Shown here: piece after piece, positions 5,438-11,904 of the stretch | How positions within the stretch are numbered: the stretch's first letter is position 1 | Layout: each line of letters starts with the position of its first letter | Assembly: GCA_011364925.1 (NCBI GenBank) | Contig: RDOA01000012.1 | Coordinates: 18,254-82,253 of the forward strand | Direction of reading: 5' to 3' | Length of the DNA: 64,000 bases | Source: Promethearchaeota archaeon | GTDB lineage: Archaea; Asgardarchaeota; Lokiarchaeia; Sigyniarchaeales; SOKP01 | The notes under the pieces: model-generated | The model's input: the letters and a program-made list of their open reading frames with translations, nothing else | Told to the model about the DNA's origin: nothing | Databases searched by the model: none | Position numbers and translations under genes: made by a program

Positions 5438-5839
5438 ATGGATTTTGACGAGGAATTTGATAAGGAGTTCGACGAAGAATTGGAGGAGGATTTTGACGAA
5501 AACTTAGATGAAGATTTTGACGAACCTACTTCAAAAACTCCTCCTGACGATGTTAAAGTTAAGACTCCAGAACCTCATCTCCCTCCTGAAGGAAAAAAGA
5601 TATCTGTATTTTTTCTTTCTACTATTGGTCCGGGAGAAAAAAAACAAAAATTACTAGTATATACTGGTAATAAAGTTGGAGACATTAAAGATACTGTGGC
5701 AAATTTGTTTGCGCTAGATCCATCCGATTTCCATTTGTCTTCAGGAGGAGTGACAATGGATGAGACATCTTACCTAAGCGATTATAATGTAGATGAAGGA
5801 GATGACATATTATTAATTCCTGCTAGCGTAGCAGGTTGA
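5438..5839 (+). CDS. ubiquitin-like protein with acidic N-terminal extension, ending in an exposed Gly (Ubl-A)
   Basis: beta-grasp pattern (VGDIKDTV...GVTMDETSYLSDYNVDEGDDILLI) ending PASVAG-stop; about 70% identical to the 7692..8024 domain. Confidence 0.85.
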   Translation: MDFDEEFDKEFDEELEEDFDENLDEDFDEPTSKTPPDDVKVKTPEPHLPPEGKKISVFFLSTIGPGEKKQKLLVYTGNKVGDIKDTVANLFALDPSDFHLSSGGVTMDETSYLSDYNVDEGDDILLIPASVAG

Positions 5840-5880: not shown

Positions 5881-6669
5881 CTATTTTTTTCTCGATGGTA
5901 TTAACGCGATCTCGTCATCGTCGTCAATAGAATAATCCCTTATCTGCTTTGATTCGTCTAACAATATCCCACCGGTGGATAGGAGAAAATCTTCTAAAGC
6001 ATAATCAAATAGAATTCCGACTTGTTCCTTGAGGATATTTACTAATTCTGAAGTTTCAATAACGATTATTTTGGTTTTCTCGCCAGGTTCGACTAATGAT
6101 CTTACATAAACGCGAATCTTATCATCCATTCCAATAGTGGTCAGTGGTGGGTTGTACTGCACTTTTTCATTAGTTCTTTCCTTATATTGCAAGATATCTT
6201 TAATTAACCGTTTTCTTTCGCTAGGTTCAAAATATAGCATTTCTCTGATAAAAAAGATTTTATCCATCTTTGATAACCCTAGCAAATCAATTTTGTCTAA
6301 TTCTTCTCTATTGAACAATGTAAAAATGTAATCGTCGAAGGTCTCAATTTTTTCAAAAGTTTCATCGCTATCTGCATATTGATCTACTAATGGCATAGCT
6401 TCGAAGTAATCTTCGATTAGTTCGCTTGTAGTTCTATGTATTGGATTTAACTTTTTAGCGTATTTATCTTTTTTTATCTTTTTAGCGGGACTACCCGTAG
6501 AAGATACAACGGTATAGATCGTGCCCGTTGACAATACCGCAACGCTCCCAACAGTTAGAAAGAGGAATAGAGGTAAACTTTCTATCTGCATTAAGAAAAA
6601 AATCAAATAGAGTATTGCAAAAACAATGTAAAGAGTTAAAATACTTAGAATTCTAAATTTTTTTTTCAT
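5881..6669 (-). CDS. membrane-anchored protein with C-terminal ubiquitin-like domain lacking terminal Gly
   Basis: two N-terminal hydrophobic helices; C-terminal PGEK...LSTGGILLDESKQIRDYSIDDDDEIALIPSRKK aligns to the two Ubls. Confidence 0.8.
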   Translation of the reverse strand: MKKKFRILSILTLYIVFAILYLIFFLMQIESLPLFLFLTVGSVAVLSTGTIYTVVSSTGSPAKKIKKDKYAKKLNPIHRTTSELIEDYFEAMPLVDQYADSDETFEKIETFDDYIFTLFNREELDKIDLLGLSKMDKIFFIREMLYFEPSERKRLIKDILQYKERTNEKVQYNPPLTTIGMDDKIRVYVRSLVEPGEKTKIIVIETSELVNILKEQVGILFDYALEDFLLSTGGILLDESKQIRDYSIDDDDEIALIPSRKK

Positions 6670-6747: not shown

Positions 6748-7422
6748 TTATATATCATAAGGAACTGATTTTCTAATATTCTCATATCTCTTGGAGTCTA
6801 ATTTATATAAATCTCTTTTTTTATCTTTTTCAATTGATATTAATTTTAAATTCATTAAAATTTCAAGATATTTTTTAATTGTATTGTAATTACCTTTTAG
6901 GATAGAAGCTATTTCAGTAATTTTCAAAGAATTATCTTCACTCTTTAATAGATTTATAATCTCACGAACGATTTCTTGCTTTAAATAATAATATATCTCG
7001 TCTAAATCTGGATCTGAATCGTAATCAAAAATAATTCTTTGATTCTCTATTTTCTTCGACCGTGTAAATCTGAACTTTTCTAAACATGATAAATGCCATA
7101 ACGCTTGATTACTTCCAATATTTATTGCTTTCATTATTTCATTTACATTGGATGGAGTCTTTCGGATATAATTATAAATTTCATTTCGGATTGGATGTTC
7201 AATAATGTTATTTTTCATTAATCTAGTTCCAGGGATTAGAATTCTTTTTTTAATAAGGTTTTTAATAAAGATTTCGATACTATTTCTGTTCAATTCAGGA
7301 TTAGCTCTTACCCTATTATTGATGAACACCACGATATCTTCGACAGAAAAGAACGGTTTCTTTTTTAAATATTCCTCTATTAGACCACAGACAATAGATT
7401 GAAGGCTATCAGGCTTGCTCAT
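6748..7422 (-). CDS. winged helix-turn-helix transcriptional regulator (tandem wHTH, ArsR-like)
   Basis: IRNEIYNYI...WHLSCLEK and ITEIASIL..NYNTIKKYLEIL HTH motifs; divergent from the Ubl-E1-E2 operon. Confidence 0.75.
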   Translation of the reverse strand: MSKPDSLQSIVCGLIEEYLKKKPFFSVEDIVVFINNRVRANPELNRNSIEIFIKNLIKKRILIPGTRLMKNNIIEHPIRNEIYNYIRKTPSNVNEIMKAINIGSNQALWHLSCLEKFRFTRSKKIENQRIIFDYDSDPDLDEIYYYLKQEIVREIINLLKSEDNSLKITEIASILKGNYNTIKKYLEILMNLKLISIEKDKKRDLYKLDSKRYENIRKSVPYDI

Positions 7423-7691: not shown

Positions 7692-8024
7692 ATGAGTTTT
7701 GAAGAAGATTTTGATGAGGAATTAGAACCAGTTAAATCTAAAACCCCATCAAGTAAAACACCCTCAACAGGTAAGAAGTTGACTTTATATTTTATGTCAA
7801 CTATTGGTCCTGGTGAAAAGAAGGAGAAGTTAACTGTCAATGATGCAAATCGGGTAAGTGATATTAAACAGACATTAGGAAATCTATTCGGTCTTGATCC
7901 AGATGAATTTCACTTATCATCTGGAGGTGTTACAATGGATGAGAATAGTCAATTAAAAGATTATAATGTCAATGACGGCGACGACATTCTTTTGATTCCA
8001 GCAAGTACTGCGGGATTAAATTAA
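7692..8024 (+). CDS. ubiquitin-like protein precursor with acidic N-terminal tail (Ubl-B)
   Basis: beta-grasp pattern ending IPASTAG-LN; first gene of the Ubl-E1-E2-JAB-RING run. Confidence 0.88.
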   Translation: MSFEEDFDEELEPVKSKTPSSKTPSTGKKLTLYFMSTIGPGEKKEKLTVNDANRVSDIKQTLGNLFGLDPDEFHLSSGGVTMDENSQLKDYNVNDGDDILLIPASTAGLN

Positions 8025-8057
8025 ATTTATATATCATTCTTTTCATAAAATTAATAA

Positions 8058-8092
8058 AAGGGCTTTAAGCCCTTCAATTTTTTTATTTTTTT
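8058..8092 (+). terminator. hairpin plus T-tract between Ubl-B and E1
   Basis: AAGGGCT-tta-AGCCCTT stem followed by two T7 runs. Confidence 0.5.
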
Positions 8093-8103
8093 GAACAATA
8101 TTA

Positions 8104-9339
8104 ATGGTGATAATATTGCATAAGGATTCAGATTTTTTTGCAAAGGGATTGTCAGAAGAAGAGAGAGACTTATACGATCGTCAATTTCGTTTAGAAGGAT
8201 GGTCCCAAAAATTAGTAAAAAAATCGAGAGTTTTAATCGCGGGAGTAGGAGGGTTAGGATGTGAAATTGCTAAGAATTTAGCTATGTTAGGGGTAGGCCA
8301 TATAGATCTCGTGGATCTAGATATCATCGAACACTCTAACTTAAACCGCCAAGTTCTGTTTGCAGGCGCAAAGCTGGGAGAACCGAAAGCAATTGCGGCT
8401 GCAAAAAAGTTAGCTGAAATTAATCCTAATATTATTGTTAATGGATACCATTCATCGTTAGAACGATTAGAGCCCTCTCTCTACTATAATGCTGATGTTG
8501 TTATAGGGGGACTTGATTCAATGAATGCGAGATTAAATTTAAACGCTCAATGTATTAGATTTAGGAAACCATTAGTAGATGGAGGGGTTTCTGGCTATTA
8601 TGGACATGTATATACAATATTCCCATATCGGAATGCATGTTATGAATGCAATCCGCTGCCAGATGTGGCAAGTGATGAAATGGCAGCTTGTACCGTAGTT
8701 GGTATCCCTCGAAAAAGAATTCATTGCGTTTTTAAAGGAGATATGGCCTTCAAAGAAAAATTTGATAGAGATCCGAATCCTAAAAATGTAGAAGAGATAA
8801 GGTTTATTCAAAAAGTTGCAAATGAACTTGTTACAAAACACAATTTCTTTCCTGAATATACAGAAGATGATATTGTAAAAATTATTGATCGCCATGATCC
8901 AGGAATTATAACAATAAACGCAACAATATCAGCTTTACAATCTCACGAAGCGATTAAAATCCTTCATTGGAAAAACGGTCATAAAGGATTAGGTGAACCA
9001 ATTATAAATTATATGATATTTAATGCTATGACAATGAAATTATACCACATTGAAAAGAAGAGAAATCCAGAATGTTCTCAATGTGGTAAAAATGTGAGAC
9101 GCGTTGTAATTAAAATGAGAGAAAACTCTCCATGCATGAATATAATTAAAATATTACAAAAAAATGGATACAAATTAGAATCGGAATTTGAACCAGTATT
9201 AACTCTTTTGGATTTTAACGATATAATTGTTCTAGATTTAGAGCAAAATCCAATTCAAAATGGTTTGAGGATTTACGAATTTCTCACGGTTGCGGGGTTT
9301 GAAGGAGGAGAAATATACGTAACCTTAAAATTTAAATAA
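8104..9339 (+). CDS. ubiquitin-activating enzyme E1 (ThiF family, UBA3/SAE2-like)
   Basis: YDRQ, GVGGLGCE, D..E.SNLNRQ, CYEC, catalytic ACTVVGIPRKRIHC, CSQC, C-terminal extension. Confidence 0.92.
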   Translation: MVIILHKDSDFFAKGLSEEERDLYDRQFRLEGWSQKLVKKSRVLIAGVGGLGCEIAKNLAMLGVGHIDLVDLDIIEHSNLNRQVLFAGAKLGEPKAIAAAKKLAEINPNIIVNGYHSSLERLEPSLYYNADVVIGGLDSMNARLNLNAQCIRFRKPLVDGGVSGYYGHVYTIFPYRNACYECNPLPDVASDEMAACTVVGIPRKRIHCVFKGDMAFKEKFDRDPNPKNVEEIRFIQKVANELVTKHNFFPEYTEDDIVKIIDRHDPGIITINATISALQSHEAIKILHWKNGHKGLGEPIINYMIFNAMTMKLYHIEKKRNPECSQCGKNVRRVVIKMRENSPCMNIIKILQKNGYKLESEFEPVLTLLDFNDIIVLDLEQNPIQNGLRIYEFLTVAGFEGGEIYVTLKFK

Positions 9340-9405
9340 ATAATTTATCCAAAATATAAATCTAATAAAAAATTATAAAAAAAAACAAAAAACGGGGTTA
9401 AAGAT

Positions 9406-9933
9406 ATGAGTATAAGAAGTAGTCGAGTCTCTCGAGATTTTGCGGGACTTAAAAGATTGCTAAAGGAAGGTACCATCATCCAATTAAAGCCATTTAATCC
9501 AAAAAAAAAGAGTATTGATCACTTAGCTTTAACGGTTAAAGGTCCTAAAGGAACAGCTTACGCAGGAGGATTGTTCAGATTGGAAATGAAGTTTCCTGTT
9601 CAGTACCCTAAACAACCTCCTTTTGTGAGATTGCACACTCCTATTTGGCATCCAAATTTTTGGCCAAAACCTAATGAATATAAAGGACAAAGAAATATTT
9701 GCTTAGCGTTAGTAGATCCGTCTCTAGTGGGGACAAAAGGTGGATGGAGCCCTTCGAAAACAGCTGTTACAGTTGTTCAAGCAATCATTGCTATGCTCAA
9801 CACGCGAGGTAAGTATGTCAATCCAACTGATGTGTTTAATAAAAAAGCAGCGATAGAAATGATAAAGGATCCTAAAATGTTTGAAAAGAAAGTGAAAAGC
9901 TTAACTAAGAAATACGCTAAGGATAAATGGTGA
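9406..9933 (+). CDS. ubiquitin-conjugating enzyme E2
   Basis: GPKGTAYAGGLF, FPVQYPKQPP, IWHPN, ICL (catalytic Cys), WSP. Confidence 0.95.
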   Translation: MSIRSSRVSRDFAGLKRLLKEGTIIQLKPFNPKKKSIDHLALTVKGPKGTAYAGGLFRLEMKFPVQYPKQPPFVRLHTPIWHPNFWPKPNEYKGQRNICLALVDPSLVGTKGGWSPSKTAVTVVQAIIAMLNTRGKYVNPTDVFNKKAAIEMIKDPKMFEKKVKSLTKKYAKDKW

Positions 9934-9940
9934 TTATGGA

Positions 9941-10750
9941 ATGGGCATTGACGAAAATAATTCTAGTTCCATTAGAGATGCGATAAAACAGAGAATTAAA
10001 GAGAAAATTAAAAAAGAACTCCTCGAAGAAGTGTACACTGAATTACAATTAGAAGAATTACAAGAAGAAATAACCGCTGAATTTATCGATGTAAAACCGA
10101 TAAATCACTCTAAATATATCAAAGCTAACCTTGAACCAATTCCAATGGAACCCGTAGTAGAAACTGTGGCTAGAAGCGATAAAATTGAAGCGACTATAAC
10201 AATCACGATAAAAGCAGTTCTTAAAATCGCCAGTCATTCTCTCAAATATGCGCATTCAAAAATACCTAGAGAACAATGGGTAGAAGTAATTGGCTTACTC
10301 GCTGGAAAGTATAATGAGTCTAACGGAATATTACATATTGAAGATGCTTATCCAATGGGGCATGGTACAGCGGTGTATGCTGAAATAAAGGATTATAAGA
10401 ATTATGTTAGAGCTTTTAAAGATATCAAGAAAAAAAAGGGCTTATTCATAGCAGGATGGTATCATAGCCACCCAAGTTATAGTTGCTTTATGTCAAGGGA
10501 AGATTTAAGCACACAGGCTAGATATCAAAAGCTTTGGGACAAAGCCGTTGCACTCGTAATCGATCCATTTTTAATTAACGGAAGATCAGTTGGATTTGAA
10601 ATTTACCGCGCAAATTTTAAAACAAAGAAATGGTTTTCAGTGCCTTTTGAAATTAAAGGGCATTTAGATATTCGCATGTTACCGGAGATTATAGAATTCA
10701 TGAATCCGATAATAGAAGGGAAACCAGCCTATTTAGAATATGATGAGTAA
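9941..10750 (+). CDS. JAB1/MPN+ (JAMM) metalloprotease, CSN5/Rpn11-like
   Basis: EVIGLL and GWYHSHPSYSCFMSREDLSTQ, ALVIDP. Confidence 0.93.
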   Translation: MGIDENNSSSIRDAIKQRIKEKIKKELLEEVYTELQLEELQEEITAEFIDVKPINHSKYIKANLEPIPMEPVVETVARSDKIEATITITIKAVLKIASHSLKYAHSKIPREQWVEVIGLLAGKYNESNGILHIEDAYPMGHGTAVYAEIKDYKNYVRAFKDIKKKKGLFIAGWYHSHPSYSCFMSREDLSTQARYQKLWDKAVALVIDPFLINGRSVGFEIYRANFKTKKWFSVPFEIKGHLDIRMLPEIIEFMNPIIEGKPAYLEYDE

Positions 10751-10782
10751 AGAAAATAAGTTAATATTGTGATGTTTAAACC

Positions 10783-11904
10783 ATGGTTAAAAATAAAACC
10801 TTAACAATCATTTTTGCTATTTTTTTAGTTATTGGGGTAATTCATGGTTTAATCTCTCTTTCTTTTTTAAATTTTGCAACCTGGGTTTTAATAGGATTAT
10901 GGGTAATATTTACAATAAAATTATATGTAAACATAAAACGGCACCGTGAGTTTAATTCGCCACATAATACTGCATTTTTTGTCATTATTCCGTTAACTAT
11001 TGGAATATTTTACTCAATTTGGGGCTATTATACAGGAATTCTAGGAGAAAATTTACTCGGTGGAGTATATTTTAGTCTATGGAGCTTAATTTTTGCTTTT
11101 CCTTTTGTGATCTATGGATCCTACTCATTATATCGATGTTTCAAGAAATACAATGTAATATATTTTGGGACCAAAGCTGTGAAAGCCCGAAAATTGGGAT
11201 ACATTCTTTCTTTTTCAGTTCTTATTTTTATTTTGATTTATTGGATAAGTTTTTATAGCGCAATTGAGAGTTTTCCGTTGGATTTGAATCTCTTAATACT
11301 ATTTATAGCTACAATTTTAGTCGTAATAATATTTGGTTTTACTAATTCTCGTCCATCATTACCTACTTTAACACGCGATTATATTGCAAATCGTACTAGA
11401 ACAATAAACAATTTAACTACGCCTACAACACAACGACAGCGTTTACGGACTACAAGAGTAACCGCTCCTACTCCATCTACTAGAGCAACAACACAAACTT
11501 CAAGATCGAGAACTCATTCGTCAAGAATAACCCCTACATCACATAGACAAACTACAAGAACTAAAACAACAAAAGTTACACACACAACTACTGTTAAACC
11601 TACTTCCAAAATTCGGAATATTAATAATTATAAACCCAGAGCATCGTATTTGTCATTAGAAGATTTTAAGTGTATCTTTTGTTTTAAGCTACCAAAACTT
11701 CCTGATGACAAGGGTCGAGGAGTGGTTATATGTCCAAATTGCAGATATCCCTCCCATGCGGATGAATTCAAAGATTGGATGCGCACTTCAAATCTTTGTT
11801 CGCGTTGTAGTGCTCCTATTCCTACCAGCTTTAGGCGTAATCCCAGTATAGTAAGTGTAAAGAACTACATTATTGCTTATAAACAATTGTTAAAACGCAA
11901 ATAA
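10783..11904 (+). CDS. multi-pass membrane protein with C-terminal RING-variant domain (putative E3 ligase)
   Basis: about 6 hydrophobic helices, Thr/Arg/Ser-rich linker, C-x2-C-x16-C-x2-C-x4-H-x2-E-x3-W-x6-C-x2-C. Confidence 0.75.
   Translation: MVKNKTLTIIFAIFLVIGVIHGLISLSFLNFATWVLIGLWVIFTIKLYVNIKRHREFNSPHNTAFFVIIPLTIGIFYSIWGYYTGILGENLLGGVYFSLWSLIFAFPFVIYGSYSLYRCFKKYNVIYFGTKAVKARKLGYILSFSVLIFILIYWISFYSAIESFPLDLNLLILFIATILVVIIFGFTNSRPSLPTLTRDYIANRTRTINNLTTPTTQRQRLRTTRVTAPTPSTRATTQTSRSRTHSSRITPTSHRQTTRTKTTKVTHTTTVKPTSKIRNINNYKPRASYLSLEDFKCIFCFKLPKLPDDKGRGVVICPNCRYPSHADEFKDWMRTSNLCSRCSAPIPTSFRRNPSIVSVKNYIIAYKQLLKRK

Follow-up and report, generated by a model that had tools for sequence, protein, structure and literature searches.

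A predicted ubiquitin-family modifier of Asgard archaea with a conserved Ala-Gly tail, encoded in a ubiquitin-type operon

Five same-strand genes separated by gaps of 7-80 nucleotides (nt) lie together at positions 7692-11904 of the stretch of Promethearchaeota archaeon DNA analysed here (contig RDOA01000012.1 of assembly GCA_011364925.1, positions 18,254 to 82,253 of the forward strand; the whole 64,000 nt are called the window below, and positions are counted within it unless another contig or locus is named). The first, at 7692-8024, encodes a small ubiquitin-like protein (Ubl) whose C-terminus reads DDILLIPASTAG-LN in the translated open reading frame (ORF), with Gly-Gly absent; genes for an E1-like enzyme, an E2-like enzyme, a JAMM metalloprotease and a protein with a RING-like finger follow it, and this clustering, as judged from the encoded sequences, is that of the archaeal ubiquitin operons of the Caldiarchaeum/Asgard type. 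We consider it highly probable that the gene at 7692-8024 specifies the precursor of a conjugatable modifier of the ubiquitin family, and that this modifier is one of a separate family, spread across the Asgard archaea, in which the mature end is Ala-Gly (I-P-x-S-T-A-G) rather than Gly-Gly. The features on which the argument depends are these:

7692..8024, plus strand: Ubl pro-form, putative Ala-Gly ("STAG-tail") ubiquitin-family modifier, with ATG start, 110 amino acids (aa)
7692-7772 (residues 1-27), plus strand: N-terminal arm of the Ubl, disordered, acidic and with KSKTP
Residues 28-103 of the Ubl, plus strand: beta-grasp
Ubl tail, plus strand: P103-A-S-T-A107-G108, then the predicted propeptide L109-N110, from sequence
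7998-8000 (P103), 8010-8012 (A107), 8013-8015 (G108), 8016-8021 (L109-N110) and 8022-8024 (TAA), plus strand: Ubl codons, read directly from the DNA
8104..9339, plus strand: canonical-type E1, 411 aa, with a ThiF adenylation domain (PF00899, 4e-58), GVGGLGCE, a Cys in AACTVVG and two CxxC pairs
9406..9933, plus strand: UBC-fold E2, 175 aa (PF00179, UQ_con, 7e-25), with an HPN motif and the catalytic Cys in NICLALV
9941..10750, plus strand: JAMM/MPN+ metalloprotease (PF01398, 2e-15), with E...HSHPx7SxxD intact
10783..11904, plus strand: multi-pass membrane protein carrying a Cys/His RING-like finger at its C-terminus, candidate membrane E3, from sequence

A search among 5.8 billion proteins found 851 relatives of the Ubl, and every one of them with a named source is Asgard (Promethearchaeota (Loki), Hermodarchaeota or Hodarchaeota). 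The best 120 of the 851 all carry [AS]S[TS]AG (120/120), followed by 0-3 variable residues; 34 of these close homologues stop exactly at AG, and the others add, for example, YF, RLI, YI, CFE or K. Among representatives of clusters at 50% identity, 36 of 47 have I-P-x-S-x-A-G with 0-6 residues beyond it, and when 40 diverse members (35-64% identity) are aligned, no column is invariant except G79, P103, A107 and G108. The original prediction, made from the letters of the window, had described a single C-terminal Gly, no di-glycine and a two-residue propeptide, and that description is borne out both by the codons of the gene and by the invariance of A107 and G108. The C-terminal Gly-Gly usual in the ubiquitin family is thus lacking family-wide (P-A-S-T-A-G in its place), and the sequence of a precursor is present, in the Leu-Asn beyond Gly108 here and in the 0-6 variable residues of the homologues. 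Two relatives are head-to-tail poly-Ubl proteins, P0121 (L005:59-1177) with three units and P0122 with two, each unit consisting of an acidic arm, KSKTP and a beta-grasp ending in IP[HF]S[TQ]AG, with the next unit starting directly after. The combination of an invariant end, disposable sequence beyond it and polyprotein precursors leads us to expect the mature C-terminus at the Gly of Ala-Gly. P0121 and P0122 form an archaeal counterpart of the polyubiquitin genes; the contigs that encode P0121, P0143 and P0159 are 0.6-1.5 kb long, with almost no gene context.

The tail had also been read, in the original prediction, as a sign that the Ubl could be a form linking ubiquitin and UFM1 modifiers, with the spacing IP-x4-G as the shared trait. 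The other likenesses are a single Gly preceded by a small or hydrophobic residue at the -1 position, a Pro at the fifth position ahead of that Gly, a short propeptide, and a hairpin, LYFMSTIGPGEK, resembling the LYFTPTIGEK and IYFMSKFGEKK of UFM1-like domains found in Asgard genomes. On sequence, profile and fold, however, the protein groups with ubiquitin. It matches PF00240 with an E-value of 4.2e-7 (30.1 bits, cut-off 25.4), as do all 27 of 27 family members, and a phmmer search against the PDB pairs its ssggvtmdensqlkdynv with the fagkqledgrtlsdyni of ubiquitin, so that the predicted resemblance of its core to ubiquitin is upheld; the PDB sequence matches listed are ubiquitin or designed ubiquitin variants, with a few Hub1 or other ubiquitin-like proteins. 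In a mafft alignment, with which phmmer agrees, LLIPASTAG, the YMITRTTGG of Asgard Gly-Gly ubiquitins and the LVLRLRGG of eukaryotic ubiquitin fall into register without a gap, placing A107 at the position of ubiquitin Gly75 and G108 at that of Gly76 (by alignment to LRLRGG). The IP-x4-G spacing is therefore ubiquitin's own tail length, and does not serve as a trait of UFM1. The same alignment supports the predicted lengthening of the loop between beta1 and beta2, STIGPGEKKE here, which elaborates by two residues the AIGGGE seen at this place in the Gly-Gly ubiquitins of Asgard archaea. A single Gly with a short propeptide, which the ...TAG-LN ending does provide, is common to ATG8, ATG12 and many prokaryotic Ubls and does not define UFM1.

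Profile comparisons were made with hhalign, with four Asgard UFM1-like domains standing in for the UFM1 side. The Ala-Gly family aligns to Asgard Gly-Gly ubiquitins with a probability of 96.6 and a score of 58 over 82 columns that include the tail, to eukaryotic ubiquitin with 94.9 and 46 over 60 columns, and to the UFM1-like domains with 92.5 and 42.3 over 53 columns, all of them N-terminal. Gly-Gly ubiquitins against the same UFM1-like domains reach 58.8 and 28.7 over 76 columns, and with subsamples of equal size the mean scores are 56 for Ala-Gly with Gly-Gly, 37 for Ala-Gly with UFM1-like and 29 for Gly-Gly with UFM1-like. Part of the proposed UFM1 affinity thus survives, in that the Ala-Gly family stands slightly above the Gly-Gly ubiquitins in its likeness to the UFM1-like domains (about 37-42 vs. 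29), mainly because of the shared LYF..TIG..EK hairpin; the likeness is confined to that hairpin and the N-terminal beta1-beta2-alpha1 region. Since it is real but weak, and is measured on only four UFM1-like sequences, we do not read it as ancestry.

The predicted structure points the same way. The AlphaFold2 (AF2) model of the Ubl, with a core predicted local distance difference test score (pLDDT) of about 90, has a beta-grasp fold closest to ubiquitin-type structures; its best Foldseek matches are Caldiarchaeum ubiquitin (6fj7, 6fno), with ubiquitin variants also among the best, the nearest ESM Atlas models carry PF00240, and UFM1 does not appear among the structure matches listed by Foldseek or the ESM Atlas. 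The check proposed with the original prediction, Foldseek together with profile comparison, accordingly came down on the side of ubiquitin, with Caldiarchaeum ubiquitin at the top and a profile score of 58 for Gly-Gly ubiquitins against 42 for UFM1-like domains. Rad60-SLD (PF11976) turns up as a secondary Pfam hit for 24 of the 27 members. The Pfam Ufm1 profile (PF03671) is matched neither by the 27 members (E<=10) nor by the six-frame translation of the genome, in searches whose HMMER filters drop most weak matches and could pass over a very remote relative, and across 400 Asgard genomes it gives sub-threshold partial matches only; this test is weak alone, as genuine Asgard UFM1-like domains miss the profile too. 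On its sequence the Ala-Gly Ubl is clearly of the ubiquitin type, a variant of archaeal ubiquitin and most probably not a relative of UFM1.

The enzymes encoded alongside agree with this placement. In the PDB the E1 is matched best by SAE2 and UBA1 (1.2e-36) and by UBA3 (1.2e-32, residues 36-332), far ahead of UBA5 (2e-14); the E2 is UQ_con rather than UFC1 and finds canonical E2s at about 1e-13; UFC1 (PF08694) has no match in this genome. Neither a UBA5-type E1 nor a UFC1-type E2 therefore accompanies the Ubl. The canonical character that had been predicted for the neighbours is confirmed for the UBA1/2/3-like E1, the UBC-type E2 and the JAMM protease, none of them of UBA5 or UFC1 type; the RING assignment is one that Pfam does not name.

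An E1 of the ThiF family next to the Ubl would also be expected if the latter were a sulfur carrier like ThiS, MoaD, SAMP or Urm1, receiving its thiocarboxylate through such an enzyme, and two of the 27 members do touch Pfam ThiS (PF02597), with E about 0.1. We hold this to be extremely improbable. The UBA3 match over residues 36-332 exceeds a MoeB/ThiF-like core and the enzyme has its Cys in AACTVVG; an E2, a RING-like protein and a JAMM protease are encoded downstream of it; no sulfur-transfer or cofactor genes were found in the operon; and the Ubl itself belongs to PF00240, not ThiS, and lacks the Gly-Gly end of such carriers.

Asgard archaea do possess UFM1-type operons, which are separate from the one described here and served as a control. 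Pfam UFC1 is found above cut-off in 7 of the 400 genomes, the window's own GTDB family being represented among them, and UFM1-type operons were seen at L092:617-3473 (genome G109) and L098:1-2010 (genome G278), and also in L093 and L095. The L092 E1 (278 aa) has UBA5 as its best PDB match (2e-43), followed by MoeB (1e-25), and is accompanied by a JAMM protease and by a 273-aa protein whose first 88 residues are a Ubl ending in FRILPRTIVG, fused to a UFC1-like domain; L098 encodes the same fusion, with a Ubl ending in FDIIDRGVVG, and the in-frame junction between Ubl and UFC1-like E2 is ...[IV]VG|[TL]. When modelled like the Ala-Gly Ubl (pLDDT 82), the L098 Ubl returned UFM1 at PDB ranks 1-6 (5xda, 5ia8, 5ia7, 6h77, 7w3n), with TM-scores of 0.78-0.81 and root-mean-square deviations of 1.2-1.4 Å. 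The structure pipeline therefore recognises a UFM1 fold, and it gave no such result among the matches listed for the Ala-Gly model. G278, which belongs to the window's GTDB family, carries both the UFM1-type operon and the Ala-Gly family. Structure-detected "Ufm1 homologues" have been reported in nine Asgard clades, some with several or partial hit regions (PMC12962969), which might be taken in favour of a UFM1 affiliation; no identifiers are given to match, and the family meant is more probably the UFC1-linked one, though the Ala-Gly family may be among the homologues too. Taken together, we regard it as quite improbable that the Ala-Gly Ubl is a modifier of the UFM1 lineage, or that in evolution it stands between ubiquitin and UFM1 and has merely kept enzymes of the ubiquitin type.

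The family is also widespread. The Ala-Gly family profile matches 194 of the 400 Asgard genomes, among them 119 of 134 in the window's GTDB family, several other families of the same class, and families of other classes (f13, 25/31; f15, 9/12; f16, 19/22; f17; f28); many Asgard GTDB families have no match at all. Full-length copies sampled outside the window's class all end in IP[AVHS]S[TR]AG. Three loci outside the class were examined (in genomes G067, G307 and G014), and all have the same set of Ubl(s), E1, E2, JAMM and RING-like genes, the RING-like gene being the last of the locus as it is in the window; their enzymes are 44-65% (E1), 56-73% (E2) and 42-63% (JAMM) identical to those described here.

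The operon ubiquitin of the Gly-Gly type in Asgard archaea (...TRT[TEK]GG with or without a tail) adjoins an E1 of its own, in many cases together with an E2 and a RING finger. Both families are present in GTDB families f13 and f16, and in G067 the Ala-Gly and Gly-Gly loci (the L078/L079 pair) lie 90 kb apart, with the E1 and E2 of the Gly-Gly locus only 25% and 32% identical to those of the window. A third ubiquitin type, found in a sister family within the window's class, ends in ...VVRSIAG with a variable tail (L048:1465-1752, minus strand, in G125; L049:1459-1731, plus strand, in G123); it has the highest PF00240 scores of the phylum (60-62 bits) and adjoins an E2 and an E1, the latter with 35% identity to the E1 of the window. 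This type, too, has Ala where ubiquitin has Gly75, so that more than one lineage shows Ala at -1.

Whether the Ubl might be a non-conjugated adaptor or docking domain, of the kind seen in Hub1 and the UBL domains of shuttle factors, with its tail as a binding motif, must also be considered. Gly-Gly is absent, Hub1 ranks among the structural matches, a paralogue at the same locus has lost the Gly entirely, and in many relatives the Ubl forms the C-terminal domain of a larger protein. The last include P0136 (and a 584-aa ORF of L045 adjoining the G307 operon), P0152 and P0125, all large proteins with a C-terminal Ala-Gly Ubl and a free ...S[TR]AG end, preceded by a HerA-like ATPase (PF01935, 2e-14), by CDC48_N and VWA domains, or by a weak Roadblock/LC7 match. 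Such proteins may act as modifiers that bring an entire further domain with them. An invariant Ala-Gly with variable or missing residues downstream is the signature of an end that is processed and activated, poly-Ubl precursors exist, and the linkage to E1, E2, JAMM and RING-like genes is tight across classes; an adaptor role is, in our estimate, very unlikely.

For the modifier reading, a pathway can be proposed by analogy with two reconstituted cascades. That of Caldiarchaeum comprises pro-ubiquitin, Rpn11, E1, E2 and RING proteins, and its Rpn11 removes nine residues to expose Gly-Gly, the uncleaved form not being activated (PMC5654768, PMC6043591); the Helarchaeial ubiquitin cascade starts from a pro-ubiquitin ending in GG-SPKN (bioRxiv 10.1101/2023.07.25.550441). 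In the pathway envisaged, the 0-6 residues after Gly108 (Leu-Asn here) would be taken off, with the JAMM protease of the operon as the likeliest agent, and tandem poly-Ubl precursors would be cut likewise after each ...STAG. The dedicated canonical-type E1 would adenylate Gly108 and load the Ubl onto its catalytic Cys; the modifier would be handed to the UBC-type E2, and the membrane-anchored RING-like protein would steer it to Lys residues of membrane targets. The JAMM protein at 9941-10750, a candidate for both tail trimming and deconjugation on the model of CsRpn11 (PMC5654768, PMC6043591), would also reverse the modification. Ala107 at -1, together with Pro103, is probably the mark by which the cognate E1 and JAMM recognise their substrate, insulating it from the Gly-Gly and Val-Gly pathways, and conjugation by an Ala-Gly modifier is likewise put forward here by analogy.

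Several points weigh against this reading. The archaeal systems reconstituted so far, those of Caldiarchaeum and Helarchaeia, use Gly-Gly. Replacing Gly75 of ubiquitin by Ala interferes with eukaryotic E1 and deubiquitinase activity, and the present reading therefore requires that the E1 and the JAMM protease be adapted. The finger of the protein at 10783-11904 gives no Pfam RING match, and the fusions to HerA-like and to CDC48_N and VWA domains are not explained by the simple picture of a small tag. For all family members cleavage, activation and conjugation are predictions, and since the genome holds other E1, E2 and JAB genes, it is only by gene adjacency that the enzymes are paired with their substrate.

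These other genes bear on the rest of the genome's repertoire. Its fourth Ubl (L001:1453-1704; C22:12730-12921; 83 aa, PF00240 39.5 bits) ends in MATQAGG without a propeptide and is a solitary gene next to one for a DUF362-like Fe-S protein; some 9 kb from it lies a ThiF gene of 248 aa. That gene is one of four further ThiF genes, and there are seven JAB genes in total. One contig end holds another UBC-type E2 (C41:13-450, minus strand), and a contig start holds a pair of ThiF and JAB genes (C65:79-555 and C65:798-1109, both minus strand); the two may be pieces of a second conjugation locus that the assembly broke up. With a second E2 and an E1 and JAB pair at hand, the idea that the Ala-Gly operon is the sole ubiquitin-type system of the genome was dropped.

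The remaining features of the locus lie between and upstream of the genes already described:

5438..5839, plus strand: paralogous free modifier (putative), 133 aa, ending in ...LLIPASVAG-stop, propeptide-free (ORF)
5881..6669, minus strand: membrane-anchored paralogue whose Ubl domain ends in LIPSRKK, Gly lost, predicted not to be conjugatable (ORF, Pfam)
6748..7422, minus strand: winged-helix (ArsR-like) protein between the Ubl genes (PF01022, 1.8e-7)
8058..8074, plus strand: terminator-like G+C hairpin and T-run between the Ubl and E1 genes (pattern scan)

The paralogue at 5438-5839 has 64-68% identity with the main Ubl, the value varying between alignments; as it ends exactly at Ala-Gly, it would not have to be trimmed. 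Endings of the LIPSRKK type recur in the representatives P0180, P0221, P0237 and P0261. The N-terminal arm, an acidic run followed by [IV]KSKTP, is family-wide; it is found at 5438-5590 in the free paralogue, in each poly-Ubl unit, and ahead of the Ubl in the fusion proteins. The pattern scan found two terminator-like sites where shuffled sequences gave an expectation of 0.3, and with the hairpin at 8058-8074 the modifier may be produced in excess over its own enzymes.

Among known systems, the operon of Candidatus Caldiarchaeum subterraneum has the same set of genes (pro-ubiquitin, Rpn11/JAMM, E1-like, E2-like and a small RING finger), a ubiquitin made with a removable C-terminal extension that is the best structural match of the Ubl model, and a JAMM enzyme that does the processing in the reconstituted system. 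Its ubiquitin is Gly-Gly followed by nine residues, whereas the window's Ubl is Ala-Gly followed by two and carries the conserved 27-residue N-terminal arm with its acidic stretch and KSKTP; the window's RING-like protein, moreover, is a multi-pass membrane protein. When the Ubl was aligned with ubiquitin and the Asgard Gly-Gly proteins, a set that did not include Caldiarchaeum ubiquitin, its beta1-beta2 loop had two residues more than theirs. The Asgard Gly-Gly ubiquitins, such as the Helarchaeial one with GG-SPKN, are closest by profile, aligning to the last residue, and share the tail length, a Ser/Thr-Thr before the last two residues (STAG vs. TTGG), the IG of the beta1-beta2 loop and the neighbouring E1 and E2; they differ in having Gly rather than Ala at -1 and Thr instead of Pro after beta5, and in G067, where the two types coexist, in their separate E1s (25% identity) and E2s (32%).

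With UFM1 and the Asgard UFM1-type Ubls the Ala-Gly protein has in common a single C-terminal Gly that follows a residue other than Gly and leads into a short propeptide or fusion junction, Pro or Asp after beta5 and a similar beta1-beta2 hairpin motif. It departs from them probably in details of the fold (the UFM1-like control reached TM-scores of about 0.8 with UFM1), in the failure to match Pfam Ufm1, in a C-terminal half that aligns to ubiquitin and not to the UFM1-like domains, and in the families of its E1 and E2, the Asgard UFM1-type operon consisting of a UBA5-like E1, a UFC1-like E2 that is often fused to the Ubl, and a JAMM protease. SUMO resembles it in the disordered, Lys-containing N-terminal arm ahead of the beta-grasp, in its short-tailed precursor and in the secondary Rad60-SLD match, but has a Gly-Gly end, a heterodimeric E1 and Ubc9.

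The ubiquitin operons of Asgard archaea and Caldiarchaeum are well known. What is new here is the invariant Pro103, Ala107 and Gly108, the 0-6 variable trailing residues, the tandem precursors, the wide Asgard spread and the coexistence with Gly-Gly ubiquitin; a literature search brought up no description of an Ala-Gly tail in Asgard ubiquitins, nor of two coexisting ubiquitin-type systems. If attached to Lys, the modifier would leave a tryptic remnant of about 20 residues (...DYNVNDGDDILLIPASTAG), so that proteomics of cultured Lokiarchaeia based on the di-Gly remnant would miss its conjugates.

These observations lead us to a broader, tentative suggestion, to which we give somewhat less than even weight: that the Asgard archaea had, before eukaryotes arose, several Ubl pathways told apart largely by the -1 residue, Gly-Gly, Ala-Gly (STAG, with RSIAG as a second type closer to ubiquitin) and Val-Gly, each with its own E1 and E2, and that the Ala-Gly type is a third ancient pathway with a SUMO-like arm, polyproteins and "cargo-carrying" fusions, invisible to Lys-GlyGly proteomics. 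The questions then raised are through which of its residues an E1 would tolerate Ala at the Gly75 position, and whether there is cross-reaction between the pathways. The Asgard ubiquitin operons are central to the debate on the origin of eukaryotic protein tagging, and, if the suggestion is true, both the diversification of these pathways and the discrimination by E1 at the -1 position would predate eukaryotes.

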